From positions 1 through 59,541 of the forward strand of contig JAZNOJ010000067.1 of NCBI GenBank assembly GCA_045580735.1: a stretch of 59,541 bases of DNA, in the 5' to 3' direction. The stretch is from Candidatus Egerieisoma sp. GTDB taxonomy: Bacteria; Bacillota; Clostridia; UBA1212; UBA1255. The notes below the pieces were generated by a model. It ran no database searches, had not been told where the DNA came from, and saw nothing but the letters and a program-made list of their open reading frames with translations. Every line of letters begins with the position of its first letter. Within the stretch, counting starts at the first letter, position 1. The translations under genes were made by a program, and so were the position numbers. Positions 5,931 through 33,876 of this stretch are shown here, piece by piece.

Positions 5931-5978
5931 AATTGTGTGCTATACTACTTTGAATATTAATTCAGTGAGGTTGTTTTG

Positions 5979-12037: not shown

Positions 12038-12042
12038 TTACA

Positions 12043-12501: not shown

Positions 12502-12627
12502 CTTTACTACAATAATAGAGAATTTGAAATATCAAATAAAAATTTGCTCTAATTCATTTAATGTATTATAATCAAAATGCTATGCTTTTTGCAATGATAT
12601 TTTAAATACAGAAGAGATGGTGCAAAA

Positions 12628-13314
12628 ATGATTGAGGTTGAAAGAAAAAAGCAGGGAGATAAGTATAATTTAGAAGAATTATATCATATTATTGAATTAT
12701 TGCGTTCTCCGGAGGGATGTCCGTGGGATAGAGTACAGACTCATGATACACTCATTAAACCAATGATAGAGGAGGCATATGAGGCTGTTGATGCTATTAA
12801 TAAGAAGAGTTCAGAAAAGCTTTGTGAGGAGCTTGGTGATGTGTTGCTGCAGGTTATATTCCATTCTATTTTATCAAAAGAGGAAGGCAGCTTTGATTTT
12901 GAGGATGTAACAGACAGGTGCGCCAGAAAGATGTTATTTAGGCATACACATGTATTTGGCGATGTCCATGTAGAAGATGAAAAACAAGCATTGGATAATT
13001 GGGAAAAAAGAAAGCTTACAGAGAAAGGCTTTTCCTCATTAAAACAAGATTTAGAAGATGTACCTACCGTATTTCCGGCACTTATGAGAGCGCAAAAGGT
13101 TGCAAAGAAAATTCGTAAAGCTGAAAAAGCTAAGTCTGATGAAAATAATTTGATTAATGAAAATGAATTTGAAAAGGCAACAGAAGGTGAAATAGGAGAG
13201 CTTTTGTATGCACTTTGCAAACTTGCTGATAATTCTGACGTTGATGCAGAAATTGCACTTTCTAAATATATCGATAGTATTATTGAGGATGTGGATTCAA
13301 AAAATGAGAATTGA
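12628..13314 (+). CDS. mazG: MazG-family nucleoside triphosphate pyrophosphohydrolase
   Basis: EGCPWDRVQTHDTL...EEAYE...ELGDVLLQV motifs. Confidence 0.85.
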   Translation: MIEVERKKQGDKYNLEELYHIIELLRSPEGCPWDRVQTHDTLIKPMIEEAYEAVDAINKKSSEKLCEELGDVLLQVIFHSILSKEEGSFDFEDVTDRCARKMLFRHTHVFGDVHVEDEKQALDNWEKRKLTEKGFSSLKQDLEDVPTVFPALMRAQKVAKKIRKAEKAKSDENNLINENEFEKATEGEIGELLYALCKLADNSDVDAEIALSKYIDSIIEDVDSKNEN

Positions 13315-13549
13315 TAAATTTTTAAAGGTTTCTAGAGTTATTAAGCGCCGTACAGTTGCTAATGAAGCATGTGATGGTGGACGTGTATTTATAAATGGAA
13401 GACAAGCAAAAGCAGGAACGGCTGTTAAAGCTGGAGATATAGTCGAGATTGCATTTGCAGGAGGAAAAACAAAATTTGAAGTATTAAGTGTTGCCGAAAC
13501 CGTAAGGAAGGACAATGCTAAAGATATGTATAGAATAATTACAGAATGA
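13304..13549 (+). CDS. S4-domain RNA-binding protein (YabO/Hsp15-like)
   Basis: MRIDKFLKVSRVIKRRTVANEACDGGRVFINGRQAK is a canonical S4 domain. The ATG at 13304 overlaps the mazG stop by 11 nt. The longer track ORF from 13208 lies inside mazG. Confidence 0.85.
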   Translation: MRIDKFLKVSRVIKRRTVANEACDGGRVFINGRQAKAGTAVKAGDIVEIAFAGGKTKFEVLSVAETVRKDNAKDMYRIITE

Positions 13550-15897: not shown

Positions 15898-15917
15898 ATA
15901 CTTTTTGTAATAAAGAC

Positions 15918-15949
15918 ACCGGAGCCTCGAAGGGTTCCGGTTTTCTTTT
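15918..15949 (+). terminator. Rho-independent terminator
   Basis: Stem ACCGGAGCC (15918-15926) / GGTTCCGGT (15933-15941, one G-U pair), followed by TTTTCTTTT. Confidence 0.7.
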
Positions 15950-15990
15950 GCAAAGTATATAAAAAATCTTTTATTTGTTAACTAGTATAA

Positions 15991-16019
15991 TTGACAATTT
16001 TGTTTGTATGTGTGATAAT
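15991..16019 (+). promoter_or_regulatory. Sigma-A-type promoter with extended -10, upstream of the dehydrogenase/fumarase/Hdr-Frd unit
   Basis: TTGACA (15991-15996), 17-nt spacer, TGtGATAAT (16011-16019). Confidence 0.6.
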
Positions 16020-16096
16020 AAAGTGTACGTTTAAACGTTGATTTCTTGTGCTTAAAAATAAATAGCACATAAAAAATTATAGAAAAGAGGATGCAT

Positions 16097-17044
16097 ATGA
16101 GTAAGGTCACAATTATAGGTGCCGGCAGCGTCGGCTCAACGATTGCATATACGATAGCAGTAAAAGGTATTGCTTCAGAGGTTGTGCTTATCGATATTAA
16201 TGAAGAAAAGGCTAGAGGCGAAGCTATGGATATTATCCAAGGAACTCCGTTTTGCAGTCCATTAACAGTTTATGCTGGAACATATGAAGATGCAAAGGAT
16301 TCTGATATTGTTGTAATTACATCGGGACTTCCAAGAAAAGAAGGTCAGACTAGATTAGACCTTGCCCAAACAAATGTAAATGTAATGAAACAGATTGCTC
16401 CGGAGCTTGCAAAGTATGCACCTAATGCTTTTTATATTATAGTAAGTAATCCTGTAGATATTATGACATATGCATTTATGAAATATTCAGGACTTCCTAA
16501 TAATAAGATTATTGGTTCTGGAACAATTCTTGATACAGCAAGACTTCGTTTTTATCTTTCAGACCATTTTGGCGTAAGCCAAAAGAATATTCATGCTTAT
16601 GTAATGGGTGAGCATGGAGATTCAGCTTTCATTCCTTGGTCACTTGCTAAAGTTGCTGCCATCGGAATTGAAGATTATTGTAAAGGAATCAAGTATACAG
16701 GAAAGGATGTAGTTACTCTTCCTGATCATGATGAGGTTCTTAAGTATGTTCGTACATCAGGTGGACAAATTATAAAAGACAAGAGAGCGACTTATTATGG
16801 AGTTTCAATGTCAGTATGTAGTGTTATTGAATCATTGTTCACAAGGAAGGATTATATTATGACAATTTCTTCTATGATGAATGGCGAATATGGTTTGAAT
16901 GATGTATGTCTCAGCCATCTTTTCGTACTTTGTATGGATGGAGTAAAGGGCTGTGTAACACCAACATTATTAGATAGTGAAGTAGAGCTTATGCATAAGA
17001 GCGGAAATGTTCTTAAGGATATGATTTCAAAGCTTCAATTTTAA
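16097..17044 (+). CDS. LDH/MDH-family NAD-dependent 2-hydroxyacid dehydrogenase; specificity residue predicts malate dehydrogenase (LDH-like MDH) rather than lactate dehydrogenase
   Basis: KVTIIGAGSVGS ... LIDI ... SNPVD ... GSGTILDTARLR ... GEHGDS. The substrate loop GLPRKEGQTRLDL has Arg (nt 16334-16336) where LDHs have Gln102. Confidence 0.85.
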   Translation: MSKVTIIGAGSVGSTIAYTIAVKGIASEVVLIDINEEKARGEAMDIIQGTPFCSPLTVYAGTYEDAKDSDIVVITSGLPRKEGQTRLDLAQTNVNVMKQIAPELAKYAPNAFYIIVSNPVDIMTYAFMKYSGLPNNKIIGSGTILDTARLRFYLSDHFGVSQKNIHAYVMGEHGDSAFIPWSLAKVAAIGIEDYCKGIKYTGKDVVTLPDHDEVLKYVRTSGGQIIKDKRATYYGVSMSVCSVIESLFTRKDYIMTISSMMNGEYGLNDVCLSHLFVLCMDGVKGCVTPTLLDSEVELMHKSGNVLKDMISKLQF

Positions 17045-17081
17045 TAGTCAATTTTTTTAACTTTAAAGGAGGATTATATAG

Positions 17082-18446
17082 ATGGATTATCGTATTGAAC
17101 GCGATTCGATGGGCGAAATGCAAGTACCAGCGGATCGTTATTGGGCCGCACAGACCCAAAGAAGTTTTCAAAACTTTAAAATTGGCGGAGAGATAATGCC
17201 TCGTGAGATTACTCATGCGTTTGGTATTTTGAAGAAGGCAGCAGCTATTGCCAATTATAATTTGGGGAAAATGGATGATGAAAAGAAGGAAACAATTTGT
17301 AAAGCATGTGACGAAGTAATTGCTGGAAATTTGAATGATCATTTTCCTTTGGTAGTTTGGCAAACAGGAAGCGGAACCCAATCAAATATGAATGCAAATG
17401 AAGTAATTGCAAACAAAGGTAATGAAATTTGCGGAAAGAAGCTTCTCCATCCTAATGATCATATTAACATGTCACAAAGCTCGAATGATACTTTCCCTAC
17501 AGCAATGCATATTGCAGCGGTAATAGGTATAGAAGACAAGCTTTTCCCAGCAATGGATACTTTTATCGAGACATTGAAGCGTCTTGAAAAGGAAAATGAC
17601 GATATAGTAAAAAGTGGACGTACACATCTTCAAGATGCTACACCTGTAAAGTTTTCACAGGAAATCAGTGGCTGGAGAAACATGATAGAAAAGACAAAGG
17701 GAATGCTTGAAGCAGCACTTCCTGGTCTTAAGGAATTGGCACTTGGTGGCACAGCAGTAGGTACAGGTTTAAATGCTCCTAAAGCTTTCGGTGCTGAGGT
17801 TGCTAAGGTTGTATCTGAGCTTACAGGTAAAAATTTTGTTACTGCAGATAACAAATTCCACGCTCTTACATCAAAGGATGAGTTGGTATTTGCTCATGGC
17901 GCTTTAAAGGCTCTTGCAGCAGATCTTATGAAGATAGCAAATGATGTACGTTGGCTTGCAAGTGGTCCTAGATGTGGACTTGGGGAAATATTTATTCCTG
18001 AAAATGAGCCAGGAAGCTCTATTATGCCTGGAAAGGTTAATCCTACACAATGTGAATCAATGACTATGGTTGCAGTTCAGGTTATAGCTAACGATGTTGC
18101 AGTTGGTATGGCAGCTTCACAGGGTAATTTTGAGCTCAATGTATTCATGCCTGTTCTTATTTATAACTTCCTCCAGTCAGTTCGTCTTTTAGCTGACGGA
18201 ATTCGTTCTTTCAATGACAATTGTGTAACAGGAATCACAGCAAACAGAGAAAAAATGAAACATAATTTGTATAATTCTTTGATGCTTGTAACAGCTCTTA
18301 ATCCATATATAGGATATGATAATGCAGCTAAGACAGCAAAGAAGGCATATAAAGAAAACATCTCATTAAAAGAAGCGTGTGTAGCGCTTGGCTTCCTCAC
18401 TGCAGAAAAATTTGATGAAGTGTTCAAGCCAGAGCAGATGGTATAA
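17082..18446 (+). CDS. fumC: Class II fumarate hydratase
   Basis: GSSIMPGKVNPTQCE signature (fumarase-type rather than aspartase-type), with AGGAGG 8 nt upstream. Confidence 0.9.
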   Translation: MDYRIERDSMGEMQVPADRYWAAQTQRSFQNFKIGGEIMPREITHAFGILKKAAAIANYNLGKMDDEKKETICKACDEVIAGNLNDHFPLVVWQTGSGTQSNMNANEVIANKGNEICGKKLLHPNDHINMSQSSNDTFPTAMHIAAVIGIEDKLFPAMDTFIETLKRLEKENDDIVKSGRTHLQDATPVKFSQEISGWRNMIEKTKGMLEAALPGLKELALGGTAVGTGLNAPKAFGAEVAKVVSELTGKNFVTADNKFHALTSKDELVFAHGALKALAADLMKIANDVRWLASGPRCGLGEIFIPENEPGSSIMPGKVNPTQCESMTMVAVQVIANDVAVGMAASQGNFELNVFMPVLIYNFLQSVRLLADGIRSFNDNCVTGITANREKMKHNLYNSLMLVTALNPYIGYDNAAKTAKKAYKENISLKEACVALGFLTAEKFDEVFKPEQMV

Positions 18447-18467
18447 AAAATTTAAACTGAAAGGAAA

Positions 18468-19259
18468 ATGAATATGACTTACAGTTATTATCCCGGATGC
18501 ACATTGAAAACAAAAGCAAAAGATTTAGATCGTTACGCCAGAGTTTCCGCCGAAGCTCTAGGCGTTACTCTTGCTGAAATAGAAGATTGGCAATGCTGCG
18601 GAGCAGTATATCCTTTAGCTTTAGACGAAATTGCTACAAAGCTGTCAGCAGTTCGTGCACTTGATAGTGCAAAGAAGGAAGGAAGAGATTTAATTACATT
18701 ATGCTCTGCTTGTCATCATGTTATAAAAAGAGTAAATAATGATATGCTTACTAATGATGACATCCGCACAAAAGTAAATAATTATTTAAAACTAGACACT
18801 GACTACGTCGGTGAAACTAATGTTATTCACTATTTAGAAATGCTCAGAGATGAGGTTGGATTTGATAAGATTAAAGAGGCAGTTACAAATCCTCTTAAAG
18901 GAAGAAAAATAGCTGCATATTATGGTTGCTTGTTACTTAGACCTGCGAAGGTAATGCAATTTGATAATCCTGAAAATCCTACAATTCTTGAGGATTTCAT
19001 TAAGGCAATTGGTGCAACACCTGTTATAACAGGATACCGTAATGAATGTTGTGGTGGGTATGTAGCATTAGAGGATAAATCAATTCCTCAAAAGCGTGCT
19101 AATATGATTCTTGAAGAAGCTATAGCTAAAGGAGCAGATACTGTTATTACAGCATGTCCTTTGTGCTTGTATAATCTTGAAGCCAATAGCACAATTACGG
19201 AAAAACCAGCCATTTGCTATTTTACAGAGTTACTTGCCGAGGCTCTCGGATTGAAATAA
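18468..19259 (+). CDS. hdrB: HdrB-like protein with two CCG domains (heterodisulfide reductase subunit B / SdhE family)
   Basis: Two C..CCG..CxxC modules: PGC...QCCGA...LCSACHH and YGC...ECCGG...ACPLCLYN. The ATG at 18474 has better RBS spacing. Confidence 0.8.
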   Translation: MNMTYSYYPGCTLKTKAKDLDRYARVSAEALGVTLAEIEDWQCCGAVYPLALDEIATKLSAVRALDSAKKEGRDLITLCSACHHVIKRVNNDMLTNDDIRTKVNNYLKLDTDYVGETNVIHYLEMLRDEVGFDKIKEAVTNPLKGRKIAAYYGCLLLRPAKVMQFDNPENPTILEDFIKAIGATPVITGYRNECCGGYVALEDKSIPQKRANMILEEAIAKGADTVITACPLCLYNLEANSTITEKPAICYFTELLAEALGLK

Positions 19260-19271
19260 GGAGGGGTATTT

Positions 19272-19664
19272 GTGACGGTTAACGAAAAAGAGCTTGCAGA
19301 GCGCATAGTTCGTATCAGCGGCGTGAATACAAAAAAATGTATGAAATGCGGAAAATGTTCCGGAACTTGTCCTTCATTTGATGAAATGGAATATCATCCA
19401 CATCAATTCGTTTCGATGGTTGAAAAGGGACAAATTAAAAAATTAATGGATTCTAAATCAATATGGACATGTCTTTCTTGTTTTGCATGTATTGAAAGAT
19501 GTCCAAGAAGTGTTGAACCTGCAAAGCTTATTGAAGCTGTTCGTCTTTGTGTAATTAGACAGCAGGGAGAGAATCATTTAAAAGCGAATGCAGTGCCTGA
19601 GAAATTAGATGAAAATATTCCTCAGCAGGCAATAGTAAGTGCATTCAGAAAATACAGTAAATAA
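19272..19664 (+). CDS. hdrC: HdrC-like 2x[4Fe-4S] ferredoxin subunit
   Basis: CMKCGKCSGTCP and CLSCFACIERCP motifs; GTG start 12 nt after the hdrB stop. Confidence 0.8.
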   Translation: MTVNEKELAERIVRISGVNTKKCMKCGKCSGTCPSFDEMEYHPHQFVSMVEKGQIKKLMDSKSIWTCLSCFACIERCPRSVEPAKLIEAVRLCVIRQQGENHLKANAVPEKLDENIPQQAIVSAFRKYSK

Positions 19665-19680
19665 CCGGTATAGATTGGAA

Positions 19681-21675
19681 GTGAATAAATTGCAAAAAAT
19701 CGGAGTATTTGTATGTTGGTGCGGCAGTAATATCGCAGGCACCGTAGATGTAGAAAGAGTAGCTCAGGCTGTAGCAAATGAGCCGGGTGTTGTTATTTCA
19801 ACAGATTATCAATATATGTGTTCTGAAGCCGGTCAGCTCAAGATTAGACAGGCAATTAAGGATTATGGACTTACAGGTATTGTAGTATGTTCATGTTCTC
19901 CTCGTATGCATGAGGCTACATTCCGCAAAACTGCACAAGCAGCAGGAATAAACCCATATATGGTTGAAATTGCTAACATTCGTGAGCAATGTTCATGGAT
20001 TCATAAGGATAAGGATGAGGGAACAGAAAAAGCAATTATTTTGGCTAAGGCGGCTATTGCTAAGCTTCAGCTTAATACACCACTCACAGCTGGTGAAAGT
20101 GCAGTAACAAAAAGAGCACTCGTTATTGGTGGTGGTATAGCTGGTATTCAGACAGCTCTTGATGTTGCTGATGCAGGATACGAGGTTGATATTGTTGAAA
20201 AATCACCAACCATCGGTGGTAAGATGGCTCAGCTTGATAAAACATTCCCAACACTTGACTGTGCGGCATGTATTTTGACACCAAAAATGGTTGATGCCTC
20301 AGCTCATGAAAAGATTAATCTCTTTACATATAGTGAGGTAGAAGCAGTTAGTGGATTTGTTGGTAATTTCAAGGTTAAAATCAGAAAAAAGGCAAGACGT
20401 GTAAAAGCAGACCTTTGTACAGGTTGCGGAGTATGCACAGAAAAATGTCCTTCAAGAAAGGCGCCTAACGAGTTTAACCAAGGCCTTAATAAAAGAGGCG
20501 CAATTTATATTCCTTTTGCACAGGCTATACCAAATGTTCCTGTTATTGACCCTGAATACTGTGTTAAATTAAAAACAGGAAAATGTGGACTTTGTGCAAG
20601 TGTTTGTCCTTCAAAGGCAATTGATTTTGAACAACAGGATGAGATAATTGAGAGAGAGTACGGTGCAATCGTTGCTGCTACTGGTTATAGACCAATATCT
20701 TTAGAGAATTTCGAAGAATTTGGATATGCTCAAAATAAAGACGTAATCACATCGCTTGAGCTCGAGCGCCTTATGAATGCTGCAGGACCTACAAAGGGTG
20801 TACTCCTTCGTCCTTCAGATAATGAACATCCACATGAAATCGTATTTGTACAGTGTGTAGGTTCAAGAGATACATCAGGCTGTGGTAAACCATATTGCTC
20901 AAAAATTTGTTGTATGTATACAGCTAAACATGCAATGATGATTCGTGATAAATATCCTGATACAAAGGTACATGTATTCTATATTGATGTTAGAACACCT
21001 GGTAAAAATTTCGATGAATTTTATCGCAGAGCTGTTGAAGAATACGGTGTAGATTATATAAAAGGTATGGTAGGTAAGGTTGTTGAAAAGGATGGCAAGC
21101 TTATTGTTCAAGGTTCAGATCTTATCGCTAATGAACAGGTTAAGATAGAAGCAGATATGGTAGTTCTGGCAACTGCAATTGAGCCTGATCCAAGTGTTAA
21201 GAATCTTGCTACAATGCTTACAGCAAGTATTGATACAAACAACTTCTTAACAGAGGCTCATGCTAAGCTTCGTCCTGTAGAGAGTCCTACAGCAGGCGTA
21301 TTCCTTTCAGGTGTATGCCAAGGTCCTAAAGACGTTCCTGAAACAGTTGCACAGGCAAGTGCAGCTGCAGCGAAGGTTATTGGCCTTTTAGCTAAAGACA
21401 AGCTCACATGTAATCCATGTGTTGCAAATTCTAATGAGCTTCTCTGTAATGGATGCTCACAGTGTGCTAATGTTTGTCCTTATGGAGCTATTGATTATAT
21501 AAATAAAGAAGTAAATGACCATGGAAAGAGAGAAGTTCGTCGCATTGCACAGGTTAATGAAGCAGTGTGTCAGGGCTGTGGTGCTTGTACAGTAACATGT
21601 CCTTCAGGCGCTATGGATCTTAAGGGCTTTACAACAAGACAAATTATGGCGGAGGTTGACGCAATATGCAAATAA
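19681..21675 (+). CDS. hdrA: HdrA-like FAD-dependent iron-sulfur flavoprotein
   Basis: N-terminal KIGVFVCWCGSNI; VIGGGIAGIQTALDVADAGYEVDIVEK...TLDCAACILTPKM; four CxxCxxCxxxCP motifs. The start is uncertain: GTG 19681, TTG 19690 or ATG 19639. Confidence 0.85.
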   Translation: MNKLQKIGVFVCWCGSNIAGTVDVERVAQAVANEPGVVISTDYQYMCSEAGQLKIRQAIKDYGLTGIVVCSCSPRMHEATFRKTAQAAGINPYMVEIANIREQCSWIHKDKDEGTEKAIILAKAAIAKLQLNTPLTAGESAVTKRALVIGGGIAGIQTALDVADAGYEVDIVEKSPTIGGKMAQLDKTFPTLDCAACILTPKMVDASAHEKINLFTYSEVEAVSGFVGNFKVKIRKKARRVKADLCTGCGVCTEKCPSRKAPNEFNQGLNKRGAIYIPFAQAIPNVPVIDPEYCVKLKTGKCGLCASVCPSKAIDFEQQDEIIEREYGAIVAATGYRPISLENFEEFGYAQNKDVITSLELERLMNAAGPTKGVLLRPSDNEHPHEIVFVQCVGSRDTSGCGKPYCSKICCMYTAKHAMMIRDKYPDTKVHVFYIDVRTPGKNFDEFYRRAVEEYGVDYIKGMVGKVVEKDGKLIVQGSDLIANEQVKIEADMVVLATAIEPDPSVKNLATMLTASIDTNNFLTEAHAKLRPVESPTAGVFLSGVCQGPKDVPETVAQASAAAAKVIGLLAKDKLTCNPCVANSNELLCNGCSQCANVCPYGAIDYINKEVNDHGKREVRRIAQVNEAVCQGCGACTVTCPSGAMDLKGFTTRQIMAEVDAICK

Positions 21676-22112
21676 ATGAAAACGACAAAGAATTTAAACC
21701 GTTGATTGTTGCATTTTGCTGTAACTGGTGTAGTTACGCAGGTGCAGACCTAGCAGGCTCAAGCAGACTTTCATACCCTGCAAATGTAAAGGTAATTCGT
21801 GTTCCTTGTTCATGCCGCGTTAACCCAATGTTCATTTTACGTGCATTCCAAAGAGGTGCCGACGGAGTTATTATTGCCGGATGTCACCCTGGAGATTGCC
21901 ATTACACATCGGGTAACTATTTTGCAAGAAGAAGAATGACACTATTATTCAGTATGCTTGATTATTTAGGAATAGAAAAAGGCAGAACAAGAGTGGAATG
22001 GATTTCCGCTGCTGAGGGTGCTAAGTTCTCTGCAACAATGAACGAATTTGTAGAAACTATCCACAATTTAGGACCTAATAAGAAATTGGAGGATTTGAGA
22101 TGCAAAGAATAA
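21666..22112 (+). CDS. mvhD: MvhD/FlpD-like iron-sulfur protein (methyl-viologen-reducing hydrogenase delta subunit family)
   Basis: FCCNWCSYAGADLAG ... RVPCSCRV ... GCHPGDCHY motifs; overlaps hdrA by 10 nt. Confidence 0.85.
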   Translation: MQINENDKEFKPLIVAFCCNWCSYAGADLAGSSRLSYPANVKVIRVPCSCRVNPMFILRAFQRGADGVIIAGCHPGDCHYTSGNYFARRRMTLLFSMLDYLGIEKGRTRVEWISAAEGAKFSATMNEFVETIHNLGPNKKLEDLRCKE

Positions 22113-23098
22113 GTGAAGAAATTTTATCAAAATGCCGTAGTTTATTAGAAGACGGTACAGCTGACAGAGTAATGGGCTGGGAAAATGGTGAGTTTTATTA
22201 TGATGTAACACCTGCTGTTTTCACTAAAGATAATTTGGATAATATGATTTACGATGATTTCTGTGCATCAAACCAGAGCAAGTATTTCATTGCAGAATCC
22301 AAAAAAGAAGGAAAAATAGTAGCACTTTTAAAGCCATGTGACACATACAGCTTTAATCAGCTTTTGAAAGAAAACAGAGTCAATCGTGATAATGTATATG
22401 TTTTGGGTATTCCATGTGATGGTAAAATTGATGTTCAGAAAGCTGCTACTTTAGGCATCAAGGGAATTACCGGAGTAAAGTCTGTTGGAGACGAGGTGGT
22501 TTTTGAAACAATCTACGGAGAAAAGACTTGTGCAAAGAACGATGTTTTATTTGAAAAGTGTATGGCCTGCAAAGGAAAGAAACACGTTGTTTATGATGCG
22601 TTGACAAATGAAGATAAAGAGCCTGAAGAAGCAGTGCCAAATGACCTCTTTGGAAATCGCTTTGCATACATTGAAAATATAGAACATATGACTCCGGATG
22701 AGCGTTTTGAATTTTGGAGAAATGAGCTTTCAAGATGTATACGCTGTAACGCTTGTCGTAATGTATGTCCTGCTTGTTCATGTCTTACATGTGTGTTTGA
22801 CAATCCTAAATCAGGAGTTGACAGCAAGGCAAATACAGATGATTTTGAAGAAAATCTCTTCCATATCATCAGAGCATTCCACGTAGCAGGAAGATGTACA
22901 GACTGTGGTGAGTGTACAAGAGTTTGTCCTCAAAATATTCCGCTTCATTTACTTAATCGTAAGTTTATTAAAGATATTAACGAACTTTATGGTGAATATC
23001 AAGCAGGTGCGGATATTGAGCTTGGAATGCCACTTACATCTTATACAAAGCAAGATGCAGAGCCAAGTGTAGTTTATGAGAGAGGCGGTAATAAATGA
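22100..23098 (+). CDS. 4Fe-4S dicluster protein (polyferredoxin-like electron-transfer subunit)
   Basis: CIRCNACRNVCPACSC and CTDCGECTRVCP motifs; overlaps mvhD by 13 nt. Confidence 0.7.
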   Translation: MQRISEEILSKCRSLLEDGTADRVMGWENGEFYYDVTPAVFTKDNLDNMIYDDFCASNQSKYFIAESKKEGKIVALLKPCDTYSFNQLLKENRVNRDNVYVLGIPCDGKIDVQKAATLGIKGITGVKSVGDEVVFETIYGEKTCAKNDVLFEKCMACKGKKHVVYDALTNEDKEPEEAVPNDLFGNRFAYIENIEHMTPDERFEFWRNELSRCIRCNACRNVCPACSCLTCVFDNPKSGVDSKANTDDFEENLFHIIRAFHVAGRCTDCGECTRVCPQNIPLHLLNRKFIKDINELYGEYQAGADIELGMPLTSYTKQDAEPSVVYERGGNK

Positions 23099-24147
23099 TG
23101 TATAAAATAGCTAAAGACCGTTTACCTGAATTATATGCTGCTGTTTCTGCTGTTAAGAACATCTATCTTCCTATTGAAAATGCAAATCAATGCCTTTTTG
23201 AAAAATACGAAGATGGTTGCAATGTAAATATTGATTGTCTTAAGACAGTAAAATCAGCAAAGGAATTATTCTTCCCACAGAGTGAAAATCTTATTTCATT
23301 TAAAGTAAGTGGTAAGGATATAGATATTATAGAAGACAGAGATCCTGCTGAGCCCTTTGTAATCTTCGGCGTTCGTGCTTGTGATGCCAAGAGCTTTAGC
23401 ATTTTGGATACTGTATTTTTAAGTGAACCCGTTGACACATTCTATAAAAGAAGAAGAGAAAACGGTGTAATCGTAACAATGGCTTGTAACGAACCTGAAG
23501 AAACATGTTTCTGTGGTGCATTCGGTGTAGACGCAGCTAATCCAGTAGGTGGAGACGTTACAACATGGCTTTCGGGAGATACACTTTACTGGAAGGCTGA
23601 GACAGCAAAGGGTGAGGAGCTTACAGAGTTCTTAAGTGGAATTCTTGTTTCTGCTGACGACAGTGACGAAAAGAAGGTTGAGGAAACTAAGGCTGCCATT
23701 GCAGAAATACTTGCAAAGCTTCCTTTGAAGGATTTAGACCTTTCTTACTTTAGTGGTGAGAATTTAACAACAAAGCTAAATGATGTATTTTATGCTGAAC
23801 AATGGCAGGAATTGTACAAGGCTTGTCTCGGTTGCGGAACTTGTACATTTGTATGTCCTACTTGTCAATGCTATGATATTAGAGATTTTGACACAGGTCA
23901 TGGTATAAAGAGATTTCGTTGCTGGGATTCATGTATGTTCTCTGATTTTACAAAGTGTGCACACGGAAACCCACGTACAAGTCAGCTTGAGCGCTTCCGT
24001 CAAAGATTTATGCACAAATTAGTTTATTATCCTGCAAATAATGGAGGAGAATATTCATGTGTAGGCTGCGGAAGATGCTTATCAAAGTGTCCTGTATCAT
24101 TGAATATTGTAAAAGTAATTAAATCCTTTGGAGGTGAATCGAAATGA
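23095..24147 (+). CDS. 4Fe-4S dicluster protein resembling anaerobic sulfite reductase subunit A / sulfhydrogenase beta subunit
   Basis: CLGCGTCTFVCPTCQCYD ... CVGCGRCLSKCP; ATGA start/stop overlap with the upstream gene. Confidence 0.7.
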   Translation: MMYKIAKDRLPELYAAVSAVKNIYLPIENANQCLFEKYEDGCNVNIDCLKTVKSAKELFFPQSENLISFKVSGKDIDIIEDRDPAEPFVIFGVRACDAKSFSILDTVFLSEPVDTFYKRRRENGVIVTMACNEPEETCFCGAFGVDAANPVGGDVTTWLSGDTLYWKAETAKGEELTEFLSGILVSADDSDEKKVEETKAAIAEILAKLPLKDLDLSYFSGENLTTKLNDVFYAEQWQELYKACLGCGTCTFVCPTCQCYDIRDFDTGHGIKRFRCWDSCMFSDFTKCAHGNPRTSQLERFRQRFMHKLVYYPANNGGEYSCVGCGRCLSKCPVSLNIVKVIKSFGGESK

Positions 24148-24971
24148 ATCCTGATGTATTAATACCTCAGCTCGGAGTAGTAACTGACATTCGTCAAGAT
24201 ACTCCCGACGTAAAAACATTTCGCGTAAATGCTCCCGGTGGTGGTAAATGCTTTGAGCATATGCCTGGTCAATGTGCAATGCTTTCTATACCAGGAGTTG
24301 GTGAAGCAATGTTTTCAATAACATCTTCTCCTACAAATAAAGAATTCATGGAATTTAGTATCAAGCGTTGCGGACAGCTTACAGAGTGGCTTCATCAGAT
24401 GGAGGTAGGTCAGACTGTTACAATCCGTGGACCATATGGACGTAACTTCCCAGTAGAAGATGAGCTTAAGGGTAAGGATCTTCTTTTCATAGCAGGTGGT
24501 ATCGGTCTTGCACCTCTTCGTAGTGTAATTGATTACTGTCTTGCTAACAGAGCAAATTACGGAAAAATTGACATCGTATATGGCTCACGTTCGGCTGATG
24601 ATTTGGTTGATTACGATCAAATCTGCAATGATTGGATGAATGCTGAAAATGTTAATGTTCACCTTACAATCGATAGACCTCAAGAAGGTTGGGATGGTCA
24701 CGTAGGATTCGTTCCTGCATATGTTAAGGAATTGAATTTTGATACAAATAAGACAGCTCTTCTCTGTGGACCACCGATAATGATTAAATTTACTTTGGCA
24801 TCACTCCAAGAGATGGGTTATGACAAAACTCAAGTTTATACAACAATGGAGCTTCGTATGAAGTGTGGCATTGGTAAATGTGGCAGATGTAATATCGGTT
24901 CTAAATATGTTTGCAAAGACGGACCTGTTTTCCGTTGCGATCAGTTAGACGAACTACCTAATGAATATTAA
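24144..24971 (+). CDS. FAD/NAD(P)-binding oxidoreductase with C-terminal [2Fe-2S] (AsrB / sulfhydrogenase gamma / PyrK family)
   Basis: LLFIAGGIGLAPLRS dinucleotide motif and CGIGKCGRCNIGSKYVCKDGPVF cluster motif; ATGA overlap with the upstream gene. Confidence 0.8.
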   Translation: MNPDVLIPQLGVVTDIRQDTPDVKTFRVNAPGGGKCFEHMPGQCAMLSIPGVGEAMFSITSSPTNKEFMEFSIKRCGQLTEWLHQMEVGQTVTIRGPYGRNFPVEDELKGKDLLFIAGGIGLAPLRSVIDYCLANRANYGKIDIVYGSRSADDLVDYDQICNDWMNAENVNVHLTIDRPQEGWDGHVGFVPAYVKELNFDTNKTALLCGPPIMIKFTLASLQEMGYDKTQVYTTMELRMKCGIGKCGRCNIGSKYVCKDGPVFRCDQLDELPNEY

Positions 24972-24986
24972 TTATTTTTACAGAAA

Positions 24987-25676
24987 GTGAAGGCAAAAGA
25001 TATGGAAAATATGGTAAATGTATTTATAATGGGCAAAAAATATTCCGTACCGTCAGAGCTTACAATTATGGACGCTATGGAATATGCCGGATATCAGCTT
25101 ATTCGCGGATGCGGATGCCGTAACGGTTTCTGCGGCGCTTGTGCTTCAGTTTACAGAATAAAAGGCGATCCTGAACTTAAGGTATGTCTTGCATGTCAAA
25201 CTAAGGTAGAAGAGAATATGTACGTAGCACAAATTCCTTTCTTCCCAGTTGTTAAGCAAACTTATGATATAAATGAGGTTCGTCCTAATGAGAGCATCAT
25301 GATGCAGCTTTATCCAGAAATTTATAGCTGTATAGGATGTAACGCTTGTACAAAGAGCTGTACACAGAGCCTTAATACAATGCAGTATATCGCATATGCA
25401 CAAAGAGGTGAGTATGCTAAATGTGCAGAAGAATCATTTGACTGCGTAATGTGTGGAATTTGTTCATCACGTTGTCCTGCTCAAATCTCACACCCACAGG
25501 TAGCTCTTTTAGCAAGAAGACTTACAGGTAAATATATAGCACCTAAGGCAGATCATCTCGAAAAGAGAACAGCAGAAATTGATAACGGTGACTTTGAAGC
25601 TGCAATGAAGGAGCTTATGGCAAAACCAATTGATGAGCTCAAAGATATGTATAATCATAGAGATATAGAAAAATAA
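24987..25676 (+). CDS. Succinate dehydrogenase/fumarate reductase iron-sulfur subunit-like protein
   Basis: N-terminal [2Fe-2S] pattern CGCRNGFCGAC...C, then CIGCNACTKSC and CVMCGICSSRCP. The start is GTG 24987 or ATG 25002. Confidence 0.7.
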   Translation: MKAKDMENMVNVFIMGKKYSVPSELTIMDAMEYAGYQLIRGCGCRNGFCGACASVYRIKGDPELKVCLACQTKVEENMYVAQIPFFPVVKQTYDINEVRPNESIMMQLYPEIYSCIGCNACTKSCTQSLNTMQYIAYAQRGEYAKCAEESFDCVMCGICSSRCPAQISHPQVALLARRLTGKYIAPKADHLEKRTAEIDNGDFEAAMKELMAKPIDELKDMYNHRDIEK

Positions 25677-25689
25677 GGAGGACGGAACA

Positions 25690-27318
25690 ATGAGCGACGC
25701 ATTTTACACACAAGAGATGCTGGATTCAATTAAAAAGGTAGAAGCTAGCCGTGCTTCACGTATCGGCTTTGAACCCAGAAGAATGACAGCAGAGGAAAAG
25801 GATGCTTTACTTGCTAAATTCCATCCTGATTACAAGAAAGAAAACTTTGCAACACTTGCAATGGGACCAAATAAAGGAGAACAGGTTCCTACAGAATTGG
25901 CTGCACTTTTACAAGCACACAGCCGTATTAATCCTGCAGATATTGATCTTACACAAGTAGATTATGATGTAGATGTTCTTATTATTGGTGGTGGCGGCGC
26001 AGGTTCTGCAGCAGCAGTTATGGCACATGAAAATGGCGCAAATGTTATGGTTGTAACAAAGCTTCGTCACGGCGATGCTAACACAATGATGGCAGAGGGC
26101 GGAATTCAGGCTGCTGATAAAGAAAACGACTCACCAATGACTCACTATGTTGATGCTTTAGGAGGCGGACACTTCAAGAATGTACCTGAACTTTTATATA
26201 AGCTCGTTACAGACGGCCCTGGAGCTGTAAAATGGCTCAATGAATTGGGTGTAATGTTCGATAAAGAAGAAGACGGTACAATGGTAACAACACACGGCGG
26301 CGGAACTTCAAGAAAGAGAATGCATGCTGCAAAAGACTACTCAGGTGCTGAAATCATGAGAGTTCTTCGTGATGAAGTTATTAACAGAAAGATTCCGGTT
26401 GTTGATTATACAGCTGCAGTTGAGCTTATTCTTGATGAAAATGGCAAGGCAGCAGGTGCTGTACTTATGAACATGGAAACAAAAGAAATTCTCATCGCAA
26501 GAGCTAAAACAGTTGTTATAGCTACAGGTGGTGCCGGAAGACTTCACTATCAAGGCTTCCCAACATCTAACCACTACGGTGCTACAGCAGACGGACTTGT
26601 TCTTGCTTACCGTGTAGGCGCTCCACTTTTATATGCGTATACACTTCAATACCATCCTACAGGTGTTGCTTTCCCAGCACAGATTTTCGGTGCATTGGTT
26701 ACTGAAAAAGTTCGTTCATTAGGTGCAATGCTTATTAACGTCGAAGGCGAAGCATTTATGCATCCGTTAGAAACACGTGACGTATCAGCTGCTTCAATTA
26801 TTCGTGAATGCAGCGAAAGAGGAAAAGGTGTTCCTACTCCTGATGGTTACGGAATTTGGCTCGATACTCCAATGATTGAAGAAATTCATGGAAAGGGTGC
26901 TATTGAAAAGAGAATTCCTGCTATGCTCCGTATGTTTATGAAGTATGGCTACGATATGAGAGAGAAACCAATTCTTATCTATCCTACACTTCACTATCAA
27001 AACGGTGGTATTAAAATTTCTGCTGATGGTCAGTCAGAAGTTGAAAACCTCTTCGTTGCAGGTGAGGCAGTTGGAGGAATCCATGGTGAAAACAGACTTA
27101 TGGGTAACTCATTACTCGATATCATTGTATTTGGTCGTAACGCTGGTGTTCATGCAGCTGCAAAGGCTAAGACAATAGATGAGGTAGGAAAGCTTACGCT
27201 TGATCACGTTGCTAAATTTGACAAAGAGCTTGCTGATGCTGGTATCGTTACAGATAATGTTTCACCACAGCTTCTCCCAAGATATACTCATGGCAACCCC
27301 AAGTATGAGGCAAAATAA
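25690..27318 (+). CDS. Fumarate reductase/succinate dehydrogenase flavoprotein-like subunit (FAD_binding_2 family)
   Basis: DVLIIGGGGAGSAAA, YHPTG, LHYQNGGI and GEAVGGIHGENRLMGNSLLD motifs; GGAGGA RBS. Confidence 0.8.
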   Translation: MSDAFYTQEMLDSIKKVEASRASRIGFEPRRMTAEEKDALLAKFHPDYKKENFATLAMGPNKGEQVPTELAALLQAHSRINPADIDLTQVDYDVDVLIIGGGGAGSAAAVMAHENGANVMVVTKLRHGDANTMMAEGGIQAADKENDSPMTHYVDALGGGHFKNVPELLYKLVTDGPGAVKWLNELGVMFDKEEDGTMVTTHGGGTSRKRMHAAKDYSGAEIMRVLRDEVINRKIPVVDYTAAVELILDENGKAAGAVLMNMETKEILIARAKTVVIATGGAGRLHYQGFPTSNHYGATADGLVLAYRVGAPLLYAYTLQYHPTGVAFPAQIFGALVTEKVRSLGAMLINVEGEAFMHPLETRDVSAASIIRECSERGKGVPTPDGYGIWLDTPMIEEIHGKGAIEKRIPAMLRMFMKYGYDMREKPILIYPTLHYQNGGIKISADGQSEVENLFVAGEAVGGIHGENRLMGNSLLDIIVFGRNAGVHAAAKAKTIDEVGKLTLDHVAKFDKELADAGIVTDNVSPQLLPRYTHGNPKYEAK

Positions 27319-27349
27319 TTAGGATTATATATATTTATTTGTTTAATTG

Positions 27350-27400
27350 CGCTATACGTATATTTTAATTACAAACAAAGTATACGTATAGCGAGTTTTT
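27350..27400 (+). terminator. Rho-independent terminator closing the Hdr/Frd unit
   Basis: 13-bp perfect stem CGCTATACGTATA (27350-27362) / TATACGTATAGCG (27381-27393), then a T5 run. Confidence 0.7.
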
Positions 27401-27455
27401 GAGTTAAAATAACTTTAATAATCTATCATAAAATGAGAAAAGAGGAAATTTAATA

Positions 27456-28742
27456 ATGGAGATTATTGATAAGATTTTTTCATTAGGTTCTGTTGGAGGA
27501 ACTACTATTGTATTATGCGGAGCAATGCTTATTGCATTTATAGGTTATGCTTTAGGTAGCATTAAAATTAAAGGCTTGTCATTAGGTACAGCGGGTGTAT
27601 TTTTAATGGCTCTTTTATTTGGATATTTGTTCACACTTCCAGTAATTGAAAATATTCCTGTAATTGGAAAGTTTTTCATAGAAAGTGCAGAAGCCACTGC
27701 TGTTAGTAAATACAAAATGCTTAGTTCAATTGGACTAGTGCTATTTGTAACTTCTGTTGGATTTATTGCAGGTCCAAGCTTCTTCAAAAACTTAAAGAAA
27801 AATGCTAAATCATACGTTCTTTTAGGTGTATTAATAGTAGGCTCAGGCGTTCTTGTTACTGTTTTATTCTCACTTCTTTACGGCAGTGCATATGGAACAG
27901 GTGTTATGTCAGGTGCTTTAACAAGTACACCGGGATTTTCAGCATCACAAGAAGCAGTTGAAGCAGCTAATCCAAGTCAACTAGGGCTTGTAGCATTAGG
28001 TCACGCTGTAGCTTATCCATTTGGTGTTGTAGGTGTTGTACTCTTTGTACAATTAATTCCTAAATTATTAAAAGCAGATATGTCTAAAGAGCGTGAACTT
28101 ATGAAAGTAGGTATTGAGGCTCCAAAAGAAGAAAAGAGTATATCAAAAAAAGCTTTTGAATTAGATGAATTTGGACTTGGAGCATTTGGTCTTGCAGTTG
28201 TACTTGGAATACTTCTTGGTTCAATAAAGATTCCTCTTTCAGCCTCAGGATATGCAGAGGGTGCAGCTACATTTTCACTCGGAAATACAGGCGGTCCATT
28301 GATAATGGCTTTAATTTTAGGTCACTTTGGAAGAATTGGAAAATTAAGCTTAAAGGTCCCTGATAAAACATTAAAGGTATTTAGAGAATTTGGATTAATG
28401 TTATTCCTTTTAGGTGCAGGCGTTGAAGGTGGCGTTGAATTAGTAGACCAAATTAAGGCTTCTGAAAGTGGAGCTATGATACTTGTTTATGGCTTAATCG
28501 GAGGAGTATTGATGACAACTGTGCCGATGTTAGTTGGCTATTTCTTTGCAAGAAAGGTTCTTAAAATGAGTATGCTTAATGCACTTGGTTCAATTACTGG
28601 TGGTATGACAAGTACACCTGCCCTTGGTACATTGATTGGTGTTGCAGGTACGGACGATGTTGCAGCAGCATATGCCTCAACTTATCCCGTTGCACTAGTG
28701 CTCGTGGTACTTGCCTCACAGCTTATTGTAGTTTTGATATAA
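27456..28742 (+). CDS. AAE (aspartate:alanine exchanger / YidE-YbjL-SucE) family transporter, short form without RCK_C domains
   Basis: Two homologous hydrophobic halves: GSIKIKGLSLGTAGVFLMALLFG and GSIKIPLSASG...GNTGGPLIMALILG. They are joined by a short charged linker. Confidence 0.7.
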   Translation: MEIIDKIFSLGSVGGTTIVLCGAMLIAFIGYALGSIKIKGLSLGTAGVFLMALLFGYLFTLPVIENIPVIGKFFIESAEATAVSKYKMLSSIGLVLFVTSVGFIAGPSFFKNLKKNAKSYVLLGVLIVGSGVLVTVLFSLLYGSAYGTGVMSGALTSTPGFSASQEAVEAANPSQLGLVALGHAVAYPFGVVGVVLFVQLIPKLLKADMSKERELMKVGIEAPKEEKSISKKAFELDEFGLGAFGLAVVLGILLGSIKIPLSASGYAEGAATFSLGNTGGPLIMALILGHFGRIGKLSLKVPDKTLKVFREFGLMLFLLGAGVEGGVELVDQIKASESGAMILVYGLIGGVLMTTVPMLVGYFFARKVLKMSMLNALGSITGGMTSTPALGTLIGVAGTDDVAAAYASTYPVALVLVVLASQLIVVLI

Positions 28743-28796
28743 TGCTTAATTTTTGATTGCAGAAATATCGAATAAAGTTTAAAAGATACTAAAACA

Positions 28797-28838
28797 AGAG
28801 ACTACATACCTATTTTATTTAGGAAGGTAGTCTCTTTT
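28797..28838 (+). terminator. Rho-independent terminator
   Basis: Stem AGAGACTAC (28797-28805) / GTAGTCTCT (28827-28835) followed by TTTT. Confidence 0.65.
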
Positions 28839-28882
28839 ATATATTATGTTCTATGTAAATATTAGAAATACAAGGAGAAATT

Positions 28883-29503
28883 ATGAAAATAATTACAATT
28901 AGCCGAGAATTTGGCTCCGGTGGTAGGGAGCTTGGTAAACGTCTCGCAGATGTGATGGGTTTTGATTATTATGATAGTGAAATAATAAGTGCTGTTGCAC
29001 AGAATAGCGGAATGGCAGAGGACTATGTTGAAGAAAAGTTATCTAATCATGGTTGGCAATCGTTTCCAATAACATATCGTGGTACAATTAGTTCAGCAAG
29101 TTATACTCAATCCAATAGCGTTTCACTTCTGCTTCAGCAGAAAAAAGTTATTGAAGAAATTGCTTGTATGAACAAGGATTGCATTATAGTTGGTAGAAAT
29201 GCTGATGTTATTCTTCAAGAATATAAGCCTCTAAATATATTTGTTTGTGCAGAAATGTATGCAAAGATTGAAAGATGCATGAAATATCAGTCTGTCGATG
29301 AAACGTTAAATGAAAAAGAGTTAGTACGAAAAATTCGTCACATAGATAAAATGCGTATGCAAACACGAGCAATTATGTCAGGTTCAGAATGGGGACAAAG
29401 AGATAAGTACAATTTGATTATAAATACAACTGATTGGAATATTAAGGAGCTTTCACTGGCAGTTGCAGAGTTTGCAAAACACTGGTTTGGGAGGAAACAA
29501 TGA
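28883..29503 (+). CDS. Cytidylate kinase-like family protein
   Basis: The N-terminus MKIITISREFGSGGRELGKRLA is characteristic of this family. Confidence 0.75.
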   Translation: MKIITISREFGSGGRELGKRLADVMGFDYYDSEIISAVAQNSGMAEDYVEEKLSNHGWQSFPITYRGTISSASYTQSNSVSLLLQQKKVIEEIACMNKDCIIVGRNADVILQEYKPLNIFVCAEMYAKIERCMKYQSVDETLNEKELVRKIRHIDKMRMQTRAIMSGSEWGQRDKYNLIINTTDWNIKELSLAVAEFAKHWFGRKQ

Positions 29504-33823: not shown

Positions 33824-33876
33824 TTGTAATCCTTTCTATTATAAAAACTAATCATTATATGTGTTGAATTTATTAT

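Follow-up and report, generated by a model that had tools for sequence, protein, structure and literature searches.

The locus described here raises the question of whether one transcription unit of uncultured gut Clostridia might encode the route from oxaloacetate to exported succinate, and how fumarate would be reduced along it. It lies on contig JAZNOJ010000067.1 of Candidatus Egerieisoma sp. (GenBank assembly GCA_045580735.1), whose 59,541 nucleotides are called the window in the following. A run of plus-strand genes between 16097 and 28742 encodes a dehydrogenase (mdh), a fumarase (fumC), a module of Hdr and Flx proteins (hdrBCA and flxDCBA), a fumarate reductase pair (frdBA) and a carrier of the AAE family. 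We consider it probable, as judged from sequence, that this is a succinate-fermentation operon, which would lead from oxaloacetate to exported succinate via a nine-subunit bifurcating Flx-Hdr-Frd enzyme. A more far-reaching version appears to us to have about even chances: the enzyme would be a single hard-wired soluble supercomplex, a new bifurcating class with fumarate as acceptor, which together with an AAE exporter would serve as the main succinate route in hundreds of species of gut and rumen Clostridia. These readings build on gene identities, cofactor motifs, the absence of membrane anchors, operon signals and a conserved gene order.

From oxaloacetate to fumarate

The product of the first gene, mdh (16097..17044), possesses Ldh_1_N and Ldh_1_C domains and scores above the cut-offs of both the l-lactate dehydrogenase (LDH) and the malate dehydrogenase (MDH) subfamily hidden Markov models (HMMs), so that its identity is ambiguous by HMM alone. 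However, at position 102, which is the oxaloacetate-specificity residue, an arginine in GLPRKEGQTRLDL aligns with Gln102 of the true LDH 4m1q. This Arg102 is invariant in all 34 operon-linked mdh homologs among the relatives, which were collected by a FrdA scan of genome contigs (synteny was judged from the best 80 of at least 584 loci, all with at least 74% identity, and counts refer to loci with room for the genes concerned). An assignment of the first gene as a lactate dehydrogenase was therefore rejected in favor of MDH. The catalytic residues His195, Arg171 and Arg109 and the NAD-specifying Asp53 are kept, and the motifs GEHGD, DTAR and IDIN are conserved. We read the protein as an LDH-like, NADH-dependent malate dehydrogenase that would reduce oxaloacetate to malate. 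Its best structural match, PDB entry 1y6j, is an 'L-lactate dehydrogenase' from Clostridium thermocellum with an arginine at the site of position 102 (GANRKPG), and this enzyme may really be a malate dehydrogenase.

The second gene, fumC (17082..18446), encodes a protein with Lyase_1 and FumaraseC_C domains that scores above the cut-off of the fumarase model TIGR00979 (738 bits versus 664.75). An aspartase, which would supply fumarate from aspartate, was considered and rejected, since the score for the aspartase model TIGR00839 (460.7 bits) is below its cut-off of 681.2. FumC is thus predicted to be a class II fumarate hydratase, which would convert malate to fumarate.

The Flx-Hdr module and the fumarate reductase

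A first-pass annotation of the window had treated the genes that follow as one block of 'Hdr/Frd genes'. The genes are present as described, but the block has to be divided, since seven of the eleven genes up to frdA (hdrBCA and flxDCBA) correspond by composition to a distinct FlxABCD-HdrABC module, that is, an NADH-dehydrogenase/bifurcation module.

HdrB (18468..19259) contains two CCG domains (PF02754 twice), the sites of non-cubane 4Fe-4S clusters. Both C..CCG..CxxC motifs are intact (C11/C43C44G/C79xxC82 and C154/C194C195G/C230xxC233), and in alignments both domains match HdrB from Hdr complexes of known structure. It also matches the model for SdhE, the anchor of type E fumarate reductase, with an E-value of 2e-41, which is about equal to its Hdr score. 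HdrC (19272..19664), with HdrC models as its best NCBIfam matches, has two CxxCxxCxxxC motifs for two [4Fe-4S] clusters. HdrA (19639..21675), the FAD/FeS subunit and presumed bifurcating site, matches the HdrA2 model with an E-value of 4e-239 and the solved bifurcating HdrA proteins (8rvu, 5odc) over its full length (E 3.5e-207, residues 3-659); it has the FAD-binding fold, the N-terminal cluster domain and the ferredoxin domains.

Next to hdrABC, four Flx proteins are encoded, of which FlxD is MvhD-like, FlxB and FlxC are HydB-like FeS proteins and FlxA is HydG-like. FlxD (21666..22112) is a [2Fe-2S] connector (FlpD domain PF02662, E 1e-55; VhuD model, E 5e-41). FlxC (22100..23098) carries two CxxCxxCxxxC motifs and is a distant paralog of FlxB, with a weak similarity of E 1e-5. 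FlxB itself (23095..24147; Fer4_22, E 1e-29; ShyB, HydB and AsrA models, E 2e-53 to 3e-39) resembles the beta subunit of sulfhydrogenase and AsrA. FlxA (24144..24971), the presumed NADH entry, is an FAD/NAD(P)H-binding 2Fe-2S protein with FAD_binding_6, NAD_binding_1 and DHODB_Fe-S_bind domains; it matches HydG and AsrB models and resembles the gamma subunit of sulfhydrogenase and AsrB. We propose that the module would bifurcate electrons supplied by NADH, passing them to ferredoxin and a high-potential acceptor.

The last two enzyme genes encode the putative acceptor side. FrdB (24987..25676; 229 aa as listed) is an FeS subunit of the Tfr type with Fer2 and Fer4 domains, a [2Fe-2S] motif and two complete CxxCxxCxxxC (4Fe-4S) motifs, and its N-terminus matches TfrB and SdhB models. 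Inspection of its domains and cysteine motifs revealed neither a 3Fe-4S motif nor a CCG domain. FrdA (25690..27318) is the flavoprotein of a soluble fumarate reductase (FAD_binding_2, E 2e-66), with TfrA as its best NCBIfam match, below cut-off. Its HPTG histidine and catalytic arginine are conserved, as are the motifs HY and NRL. An asparagine replaces the histidine that binds FAD covalently in SdhA of E. coli and Sdh of M. smegmatis, and the corresponding GDANT motif is invariant in all 80 relatives, so the FAD of FrdA is predicted to be non-covalent. Non-covalent FAD is a common trait of fumarate-reducing enzymes that are poor at oxidizing succinate, which fits a reductive-only direction. 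FrdA further possesses a conserved N-terminal extension of 94 residues (25690-25971) with no Pfam match, and it ends soon past the FAD domain, without the usual C-terminal SdhA/FrdA domain. An AlphaFold model of FrdA, made to explain the extension and based on a shallow alignment, had a mean predicted local distance difference test (pLDDT) score of 61.8 and was too poor for a fold search, so it was not used.

None of the 11 enzyme proteins contains a hydrophobic segment, and the cluster contains no FrdC/D-like anchor gene. This excludes a quinone-linked, membrane-bound reductase and makes the enzyme a soluble one. The quinol:fumarate and succinate:quinone reductases (FrdABCD, SdhABCD) were accordingly rejected as models, since the covalent-FAD histidine, the 3Fe-4S motif and the anchor are all missing. 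FrdBA is best described as a predicted fumarate reductase pair of the archaeal Tfr type.

Organization and 5' boundary of the transcription unit

The eleven enzyme genes are tightly packed on the plus strand (16097-27318), between a promoter and the first downstream hairpin. The gaps between mdh and fumC (37 nt) and between fumC and hdrB (21 nt) were measured exactly as first annotated. With the starts as listed, the other junctions are all at most 15 nt long (hdrB-hdrC 12 nt, flxA-frdB 15 nt, frdB-frdA 13 nt) or overlapping (hdrC/hdrA, hdrA/flxD, flxD/flxC, flxC/flxB and flxB/flxA), and GGAGG-type ribosome-binding sites precede most of the eleven genes. Two of the listed starts probably need correction. 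The true start of hdrA is probably TTG 19690, which follows a GGAAG ribosome-binding site, and not GTG 19639, so that a gap of about 25 nt to hdrC would replace the overlap. That of frdB is probably ATG 25002, resulting in a protein of 224 aa, as called on a sister contig and as found in Pseudoclostridium thermosuccinogenes.

Promoters and terminators were scanned over 16 kb. Within the unit, 11 terminator-like sites were found versus 8.6 ± 2.8 in shuffles, all weak with stems of 5-7 bp, and 69 promoter-like sites versus 53 ± 6.9, none of them close in quality to the promoter at the 5' end. A split of the unit by internal promoters or terminators was rejected, since these are weak consensus matches at background frequency and all junctions are at most 37 nt long. 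The earlier statement that no hairpin with a T-run occurs before 27350-27400 therefore stands: terminator-like sites further upstream are weak and no commoner than in shuffles.

The window around the cluster is low in GC (32-40%), and the genes around it are all on the plus strand. Upstream, a gene for a 783-aa protein with a PPIase domain ends at 15897 and is followed by an intrinsic terminator (15918..15941, +; 10-bp GC-rich stem and T-run, folding energy dG -22.3, z -4.9), which is the 5' boundary of the unit. Fifty bases past it lies a sigma-70-type promoter with an extended -10 element (15991..16019, +; TTGACA-17-TGtGATAAT, 11/12 matches plus TG). It is the top match of the 16 kb scanned and the sole site of such quality, versus 0.05 expected in Markov-simulated sequence with an equal dinucleotide composition. 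Both hexamers are invariant in five other species (six species in total), as is the ribosome-binding site of mdh, AGAAAAGAGG, while the spacer, the leader and all upstream sequence diverge. This pattern is good evidence that the promoter, which the first-pass annotation had called strong, is real. The invariant ribosome-binding site also fits the annotated mdh start at 16097 better than an ATG at 16091. Taken with the tight packing of the genes, this 5' end argues for a single transcript that extends through frdA.

Regulatory elements in the leader were less evident. At 16020-16060, just past the -10 element, a short GC hairpin is followed by a T-run, and similar structures occur in the leaders of four relatives (loci L002, L003, L004 and L006). 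However, the stems differ between the species and the consensus fold, with 4 pairs and -0.5 kcal/mol, is too weak for us to claim a signal. No riboswitch or other known RNA element was found in the leader or the gaps, with no Rfam match at E ≤ 1 across 15800-29000. Since a Rex-like gene adjoins the cluster in two relatives (L050 and L056), a Rex operator was searched for as well (TTGTTAAN4TTAACAA, at most 3 mismatches); this gave 13 hits versus 16 expected, none of them near 15900-16100, and an operator at the promoter was rejected.

The carrier gene and the 3' side

The gene downstream of frdA (27456..28742, +) encodes a protein of 428 aa with two inverted Asp-Al_Ex repeats (PF06826 twice, E 5e-62) and about nine hydrophobic segments. 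It also matches the TIGR01625 duplication domain twice (YidE/YbjL duplication-domain models) and AspT models, and its assignment to the AAE family in the first-pass annotation was thus correct. The repeats are only about 35 residues apart and there is no further Pfam domain, which means that the central soluble domain is missing. The AAE family (TC 2.A.81) includes the succinate exporter SucE of Corynebacterium glutamicum (PMC9527358), and we presume that the carrier is a succinate exporter or a C4-dicarboxylate/succinate exchanger. No solved structure related to the carrier was found by sequence.

The gap of 137 nt between frdA and the carrier gene contains a 17-bp A/U-rich hairpin (27350-27393), followed by a UUUUU run (27396-27400). 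The whole element (27350..27400, +; dG -21.2, z -4.2) is where the first-pass annotation had placed it and is probably a partial terminator or attenuator. The terminator that was expected behind the carrier gene at 28797-28838 was found as well. It is located at 28796..28836 (+), consists of a 10-bp stem with an inner stem and a U-rich tail (dG -18.5, z -4.2), and closes the unit. Both hairpins are supported by their folding energies, though its loop and GC rules made the consensus terminator scanner miss them.

In the seven nearest species, the AAE gene starts 5-35 nt past frdA, with only a ribosome-binding site and no hairpin in between. About 110 nt including the hairpin (27320-27440) have been added in the lineage of the window only. 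On the sister contig, which encodes an identical FrdA, a hairpin is present at the same place (L081, 3630-3758; dG -27.9, z -6.8); it shares the AGCGAGUUUUU end with the hairpin of the window and has a changed inner stem, CGCUAUGCACGA...UCGUGUAUAGCG. The preservation of the structure with a different inner stem suggests that the hairpin is under selection as an attenuator. It also speaks against a repeated mobile element, of which there is no other copy in the window, so this explanation was rejected. The hairpin is therefore lineage-specific and functional. A crude terminator scan of the gaps between frdA and the carrier gene in the relatives returned convincing hairpins only sporadically, and it is unreliable, since the tblastn ends are not true gene starts.

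Between the hairpin and the carrier gene, there is no consensus promoter with a spacing of 16-18 nt. We take the carrier gene to be expressed by read-through past the hairpin, which would thereby set how much enzyme is made relative to carrier. The first-pass annotation had described an 11-gene operon (16097-27318) and a separate transporter gene. The eleven genes, their packing and the promoter hold, but the separation is peculiar to this lineage. Given the short gap without a hairpin in the nearest species and the lack of a consensus promoter of its own, the carrier gene is better counted as the twelfth gene, which makes twelve genes the best reading of the unit, with the hairpin as an attenuator inside it.

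The 3' end of the carrier gene contains a promoter-like site (28715-28743; CTCACA-17-TG-TATAAT, 10/12 matches, extended -10), which is located upstream of the closing terminator and is possibly a chance match.

Conservation of the gene order

Relatives of FrdA are present in at least 584 species-representative genomes, mostly of uncultured gut Clostridia. The 80 best loci (74-96% identity) stem nearly all from metagenome-assembled gut or rumen Clostridia of ruminants, pigs, chickens, rabbits and humans and are labeled as Oscillospiraceae, Acutalibacteraceae, Ruminococcus and similar taxa. A FrdA identical to that of the window is encoded on the ENA metagenome contig ERZ27298512:k141_498385.

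The nine-gene core hdrBCA-flxDCBA-frdBA is complete in each of 53 loci, and an AAE gene follows directly 3' of frdA in 61/65. On the 5' side, fumC directly precedes hdrB in 44 of 51 loci, and in six of the 51 mdh stands directly before hdrB without fumC; mdh is found before fumC in 23/38 loci.

There are also deviations from this order at the 3' side. In L050 and L056, no AAE gene was found past frdA (approximately 11650-13500 of these loci), and genes for a membrane protein of 104 aa and a Rex-like repressor that senses redox state are present instead. In three further loci (L045, L046 and L053), frdA and the AAE gene are separated by a gene whose product of about 145 aa has a signal-like hydrophobic segment at its N-terminus.

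Proposed mechanism and alternative explanations

According to the pathway that we favor, transcription would start from the promoter at 15991-16019 and proceed through mdh, fumC, hdrBCA, flxDCBA and frdBA, and part of it would read past the hairpin into the carrier gene. The LDH-like Arg102 enzyme would convert oxaloacetate to malate with NADH, FumC would dehydrate malate to fumarate, the soluble nine-subunit FlxABCD-HdrABC-FrdAB enzyme would reduce fumarate to succinate, and the AAE carrier would move succinate out of the cell. That the order of dehydrogenase, fumarase, reductase and carrier reflects a path from oxaloacetate to exported succinate had already been suggested by the first-pass annotation, and Arg102, the fumC cut-offs, the FrdA residues and the synteny fit this suggestion. 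The reading is also supported by P. thermosuccinogenes, a known succinate producer in which the homologous operon is highly expressed and co-regulated.

In the enzyme itself, NADH would be oxidized at FlxA and the electrons would pass via the clusters of FlxB, FlxC and FlxD to the FAD of HdrA. HdrA would split each pair, sending one electron uphill to ferredoxin via its ferredoxin domains and the other one downhill along HdrC, HdrB and FrdB until it reaches the non-covalent FAD in FrdA and then fumarate. The overall reaction would be 2 NADH + Fd(ox) + fumarate -> 2 NAD+ + Fd(red) + succinate. With potentials of approximately +30 mV for fumarate/succinate, -320 mV for NAD/NADH and approximately -450 mV for ferredoxin, bifurcation is exergonic by about 40 kJ/mol. 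We infer from the gene content that the nine proteins form one complex, that this complex bifurcates, that electrons pass directly from HdrB to FrdB, and that succinate is the substrate of the carrier.

Several observations weigh against this proposal. The intact CCG clusters of HdrB could mean that the real acceptor is a disulfide and not fumarate. FrdA reaches only 328.6 bits with the TfrA equivalog model NF004900, whose cut-off is 718, and covers profile positions 6-408 of 546. The AAE family also holds amino-acid antiporters, the carrier lacks the soluble domain of the family, and in this lineage its gene is partly set apart from the operon by the hairpin. Only one cultured species, named Huintestinicola butyrica, is among the 80 closest loci, and no purification, assay or structure of such a Flx-Hdr-Frd enzyme was found in the literature searched. 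Finally, no phosphoenolpyruvate carboxykinase or pyruvate carboxylase, no Rnf complex and no hydrogenase is encoded in the window. The first-pass annotation had described the module as complete and self-contained. This is right for the steps from oxaloacetate to succinate, which are encoded, but it does not extend to the formation of oxaloacetate or the reoxidation of ferredoxin, for which the window holds no enzyme.

Among the alternatives, we give a small but real chance to C4-dicarboxylate respiration, which is compatible with the same enzyme mechanism and would take the place of sugar fermentation as the role of the module. The AAE carrier would then act as a precursor/product antiporter, taking up malate, fumarate or aspartate while releasing succinate. 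It is true that AspT, the founding member of the AAE family, is an exchanger, that no oxaloacetate-forming enzyme is linked to the cluster, and that mdh is not found before fumC in 15 of the 38 relatives with room. However, the co-transcribed Arg102 mdh points to oxaloacetate as the entry, fumC appears to encode a fumarase and not an aspartase, and a succinate exporter, SucE, belongs to the AAE family as well (PMC9527358).

A second alternative retains the pathway without bifurcation. The enzyme would then be a plain NADH- or ferredoxin-dependent soluble fumarate reductase, and HdrA and the Flx proteins would merely act as an electron wire. A metabolic model of Blautia luti just takes the fumarate reductase to be NADH-dependent (PMC12773636). 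Seven extra genes and more than 10 FeS clusters that are kept in 53 of 53 loci would, however, be costly for a mere wire, and HdrA retains every domain of the bifurcating archaeal enzyme, the ferredoxin domains included. Moreover, the soluble NADH-fumarate reductases known to us are single flavoproteins. We therefore see a rather small chance for this alternative, while conceding that bifurcation cannot be shown by sequence alone and that electron transfer from NADH to fumarate, with its large driving force, requires no coupling.

It seems improbable, in turn, that thiols act as a shuttle, with Flx-Hdr reducing a soluble disulfide, be it a protein or a low-molecular-weight thiol pair, as with DsrC in Desulfovibrio, and a separate Tfr-like thiol:fumarate reductase reoxidizing the thiols. 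Such a shuttle would agree with the intact state of both CCG motifs in HdrB, which form the disulfide-reducing site in Hdr, with TfrA as the best NCBIfam match of FrdA, and with the wording of the P. thermosuccinogenes authors, who wrote of electrons going 'to ferredoxin (and thiols)' (PMC7282089). However, thiol oxidation by Tfr needs CCG domains, which are fused to TfrB in methanogens and absent from FrdB, so that FrdAB alone could not oxidize thiols. There is only one CCG protein in the cluster, and no DsrC-like or other thiol-carrier gene is conserved there. To our knowledge, bacteria also do without coenzyme M (CoM) and coenzyme B (CoB).

A direct wire from HdrB to FrdB is favored over a thiol shuttle for two further reasons. 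The model of the methanogen TfrB (488 positions) is matched piecewise, with FrdB hitting the N-terminus, HdrC the middle and HdrB the CCG end, which provides a natural fusion precedent for such a wire. HdrB also matches SdhE (E 2e-41), which is the CCG partner of SdhAB in type E enzymes, so that a physical pairing of FrdB and CCG proteins has precedents.

The reverse direction, a confurcation in which reduced ferredoxin would drive succinate oxidation, has been proposed for syntrophic propionate oxidizers but is hardly credible here even though Flx-Hdr of Desulfovibrio is thought to be reversible (PMC10084766), since the FAD of FrdA would be non-covalent (Asn for His), the reverse reaction is endergonic by approximately 40 kJ/mol, the hosts are gut fermenters, and the homologous operon of P. 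thermosuccinogenes is expressed during succinate production (PMC7282089).

Comparison with known systems

A bifurcating enzyme of this kind was reportedly first proposed in a 2019 preprint. The closest known counterpart of the unit is the 'succinate operon' of the succinate producer P. thermosuccinogenes (CDQ83_RS03315-RS03365; fumC-hdrB-hdrC-hdrA/flxDCBA-frdB-frdA), for which a coupling of succinate formation by fumarate reduction to ferredoxin reduction has been proposed (Koendjbiharie et al. 2020, PMC7282089; preprint 10.20944/preprints201912.0288.v1). That operon is expressed at thousands of fragments per kilobase per million (FPKM) and co-regulated about four-fold by the CO2 supply (PMC7282089). 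Judged by order and size only, the two operons agree, with the same order and matching gene sizes (in P. thermosuccinogenes fumC 1365 bp, hdrB 783, frdB 675 and frdA 1602). However, they differ at both ends. The last gene in P. thermosuccinogenes is a 249-bp hypothetical open reading frame (ORF), which its authors guessed to be a transporter, whereas the window has an AAE carrier gene. A 927-bp gene upstream of fumC in P. thermosuccinogenes is 342 nt away and not co-expressed, whereas mdh in the window is 37 nt from fumC. Furthermore, P. thermosuccinogenes is a thermophile and the hosts described here are gut mesophiles.

The Flx-Hdr part resembles, by composition, FlxABCD-HdrABC of Desulfovibrio vulgaris, a soluble seven-gene module for which NADH bifurcation has been proposed (Ramos et al. 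2015). In Desulfovibrio, Flx-Hdr couples NADH oxidation to the reduction of ferredoxin and a disulfide, and its Flx subunits are homologous to those of the soluble hydrogenase of Pyrococcus minus the catalytic subunit, plus HdrABC (PMC10084766). The acceptor in D. vulgaris is the DsrC disulfide in ethanol metabolism, whereas here the operon itself includes frdAB and the acceptor is presumed to be fumarate. HdrA, HdrB, HdrC and the MvhD-like protein are also full-length homologs of their counterparts in MvhAGD-HdrABC and the formate-dependent Hdr supercomplexes of methanogens (5odc, 8rvu, 7bkb), which share with our proposal that the donor module docks via MvhD onto the bifurcating HdrA. In the methanogens, the donor is H2 or formate and the acceptor CoM-S-S-CoB; here, the donor would be NADH via FlxABC and the acceptor fumarate via FrdAB.

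The reductase pair resembles TfrAB of methanogens in being soluble and quinone-independent and in having TfrA as the best NCBIfam match of FrdA. However, TfrB fuses FrdB-like clusters with HdrB-like CCG domains, whereas FrdB and HdrB are separate proteins here, and unlike TfrA, FrdA stays below the cut-off, has the 94-aa N-terminal extension and is without the C-terminal domain. We know of no bacterium with CoM-SH and CoB-SH, the electron donors of TfrAB.

In symbionts of tubeworms and in Thioflavicoccus, tfrAB is interleaved with flxABCD-hdrABC in clusters of the reverse tricarboxylic acid cycle, and the same direct delivery of electrons from Flx-Hdr to a soluble fumarate reductase was suggested independently for these sulfur-oxidizing Gammaproteobacteria (Rubin-Blum et al. 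2019, PMC6315080). Those clusters belong to an autotrophic pathway and are linked to korABCD, and in contrast to the present unit they do not combine mdh, fumC and a carrier gene in one unit. For the succinate-forming species Ruminococcus champanellensis, a 2024 preprint names Sdh/Frd as a partner of HdrA in STRING. The carrier shares its two inverted Asp-Al_Ex repeats with AspT from Tetragenococcus and SucE from C. glutamicum. In AspT, the repeats are separated by a soluble domain of about 160 residues (202-359), whereas the carrier of the window has only the linker of about 35 residues.

The architecture as such is thus already in the literature. New here are its breadth, the co-transcribed Arg102 mdh and the minimal AAE carrier in place of the small ORF.

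Other features of the window

Outside of the unit, two large ORFs (615 and 673 aa) without a Pfam match lie on the minus strand at 31976-35898, where, uniquely in the window, the GC skew is negative. Further ORFs without a Pfam match are found at 5976-6788, 7271-8458 (minus strand), 10403-12037, 42203-42706 and 42777-44057.

Implications

The idea of a bifurcating fumarate reductase has been published for one thermophile. The locus described here adds breadth, an mdh and a carrier gene that tighten the assignment, and pointers to cultured hosts, and for P. thermosuccinogenes CRISPRi has already been set up (PMC9044749). Together with its hundreds of relatives, it makes the question of such an enzyme more pressing without answering it. 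The cluster also nominates a candidate for a compact succinate exporter, which might be useful for engineering.

Bacteroidota, together with a few Negativicutes and ruminococci, are usually seen as the source of succinate in the gut and the rumen, by means of membrane-bound, quinone-linked reductases. In contrast, the operon for a quinone-independent, soluble reductase is present in at least 584 species-level genomes, mostly of uncultured gut Clostridia. If the enzyme is bifurcating, the exergonic step from NADH to fumarate would produce reduced ferredoxin, estimates of ATP yield and H2 balance would change, and a new acceptor would join the short list of bifurcating enzyme types. These bacteria would then gain extra energy, via ferredoxin and Rnf or H2, from a step that has been thought to conserve energy only in quinone-containing bacteria.

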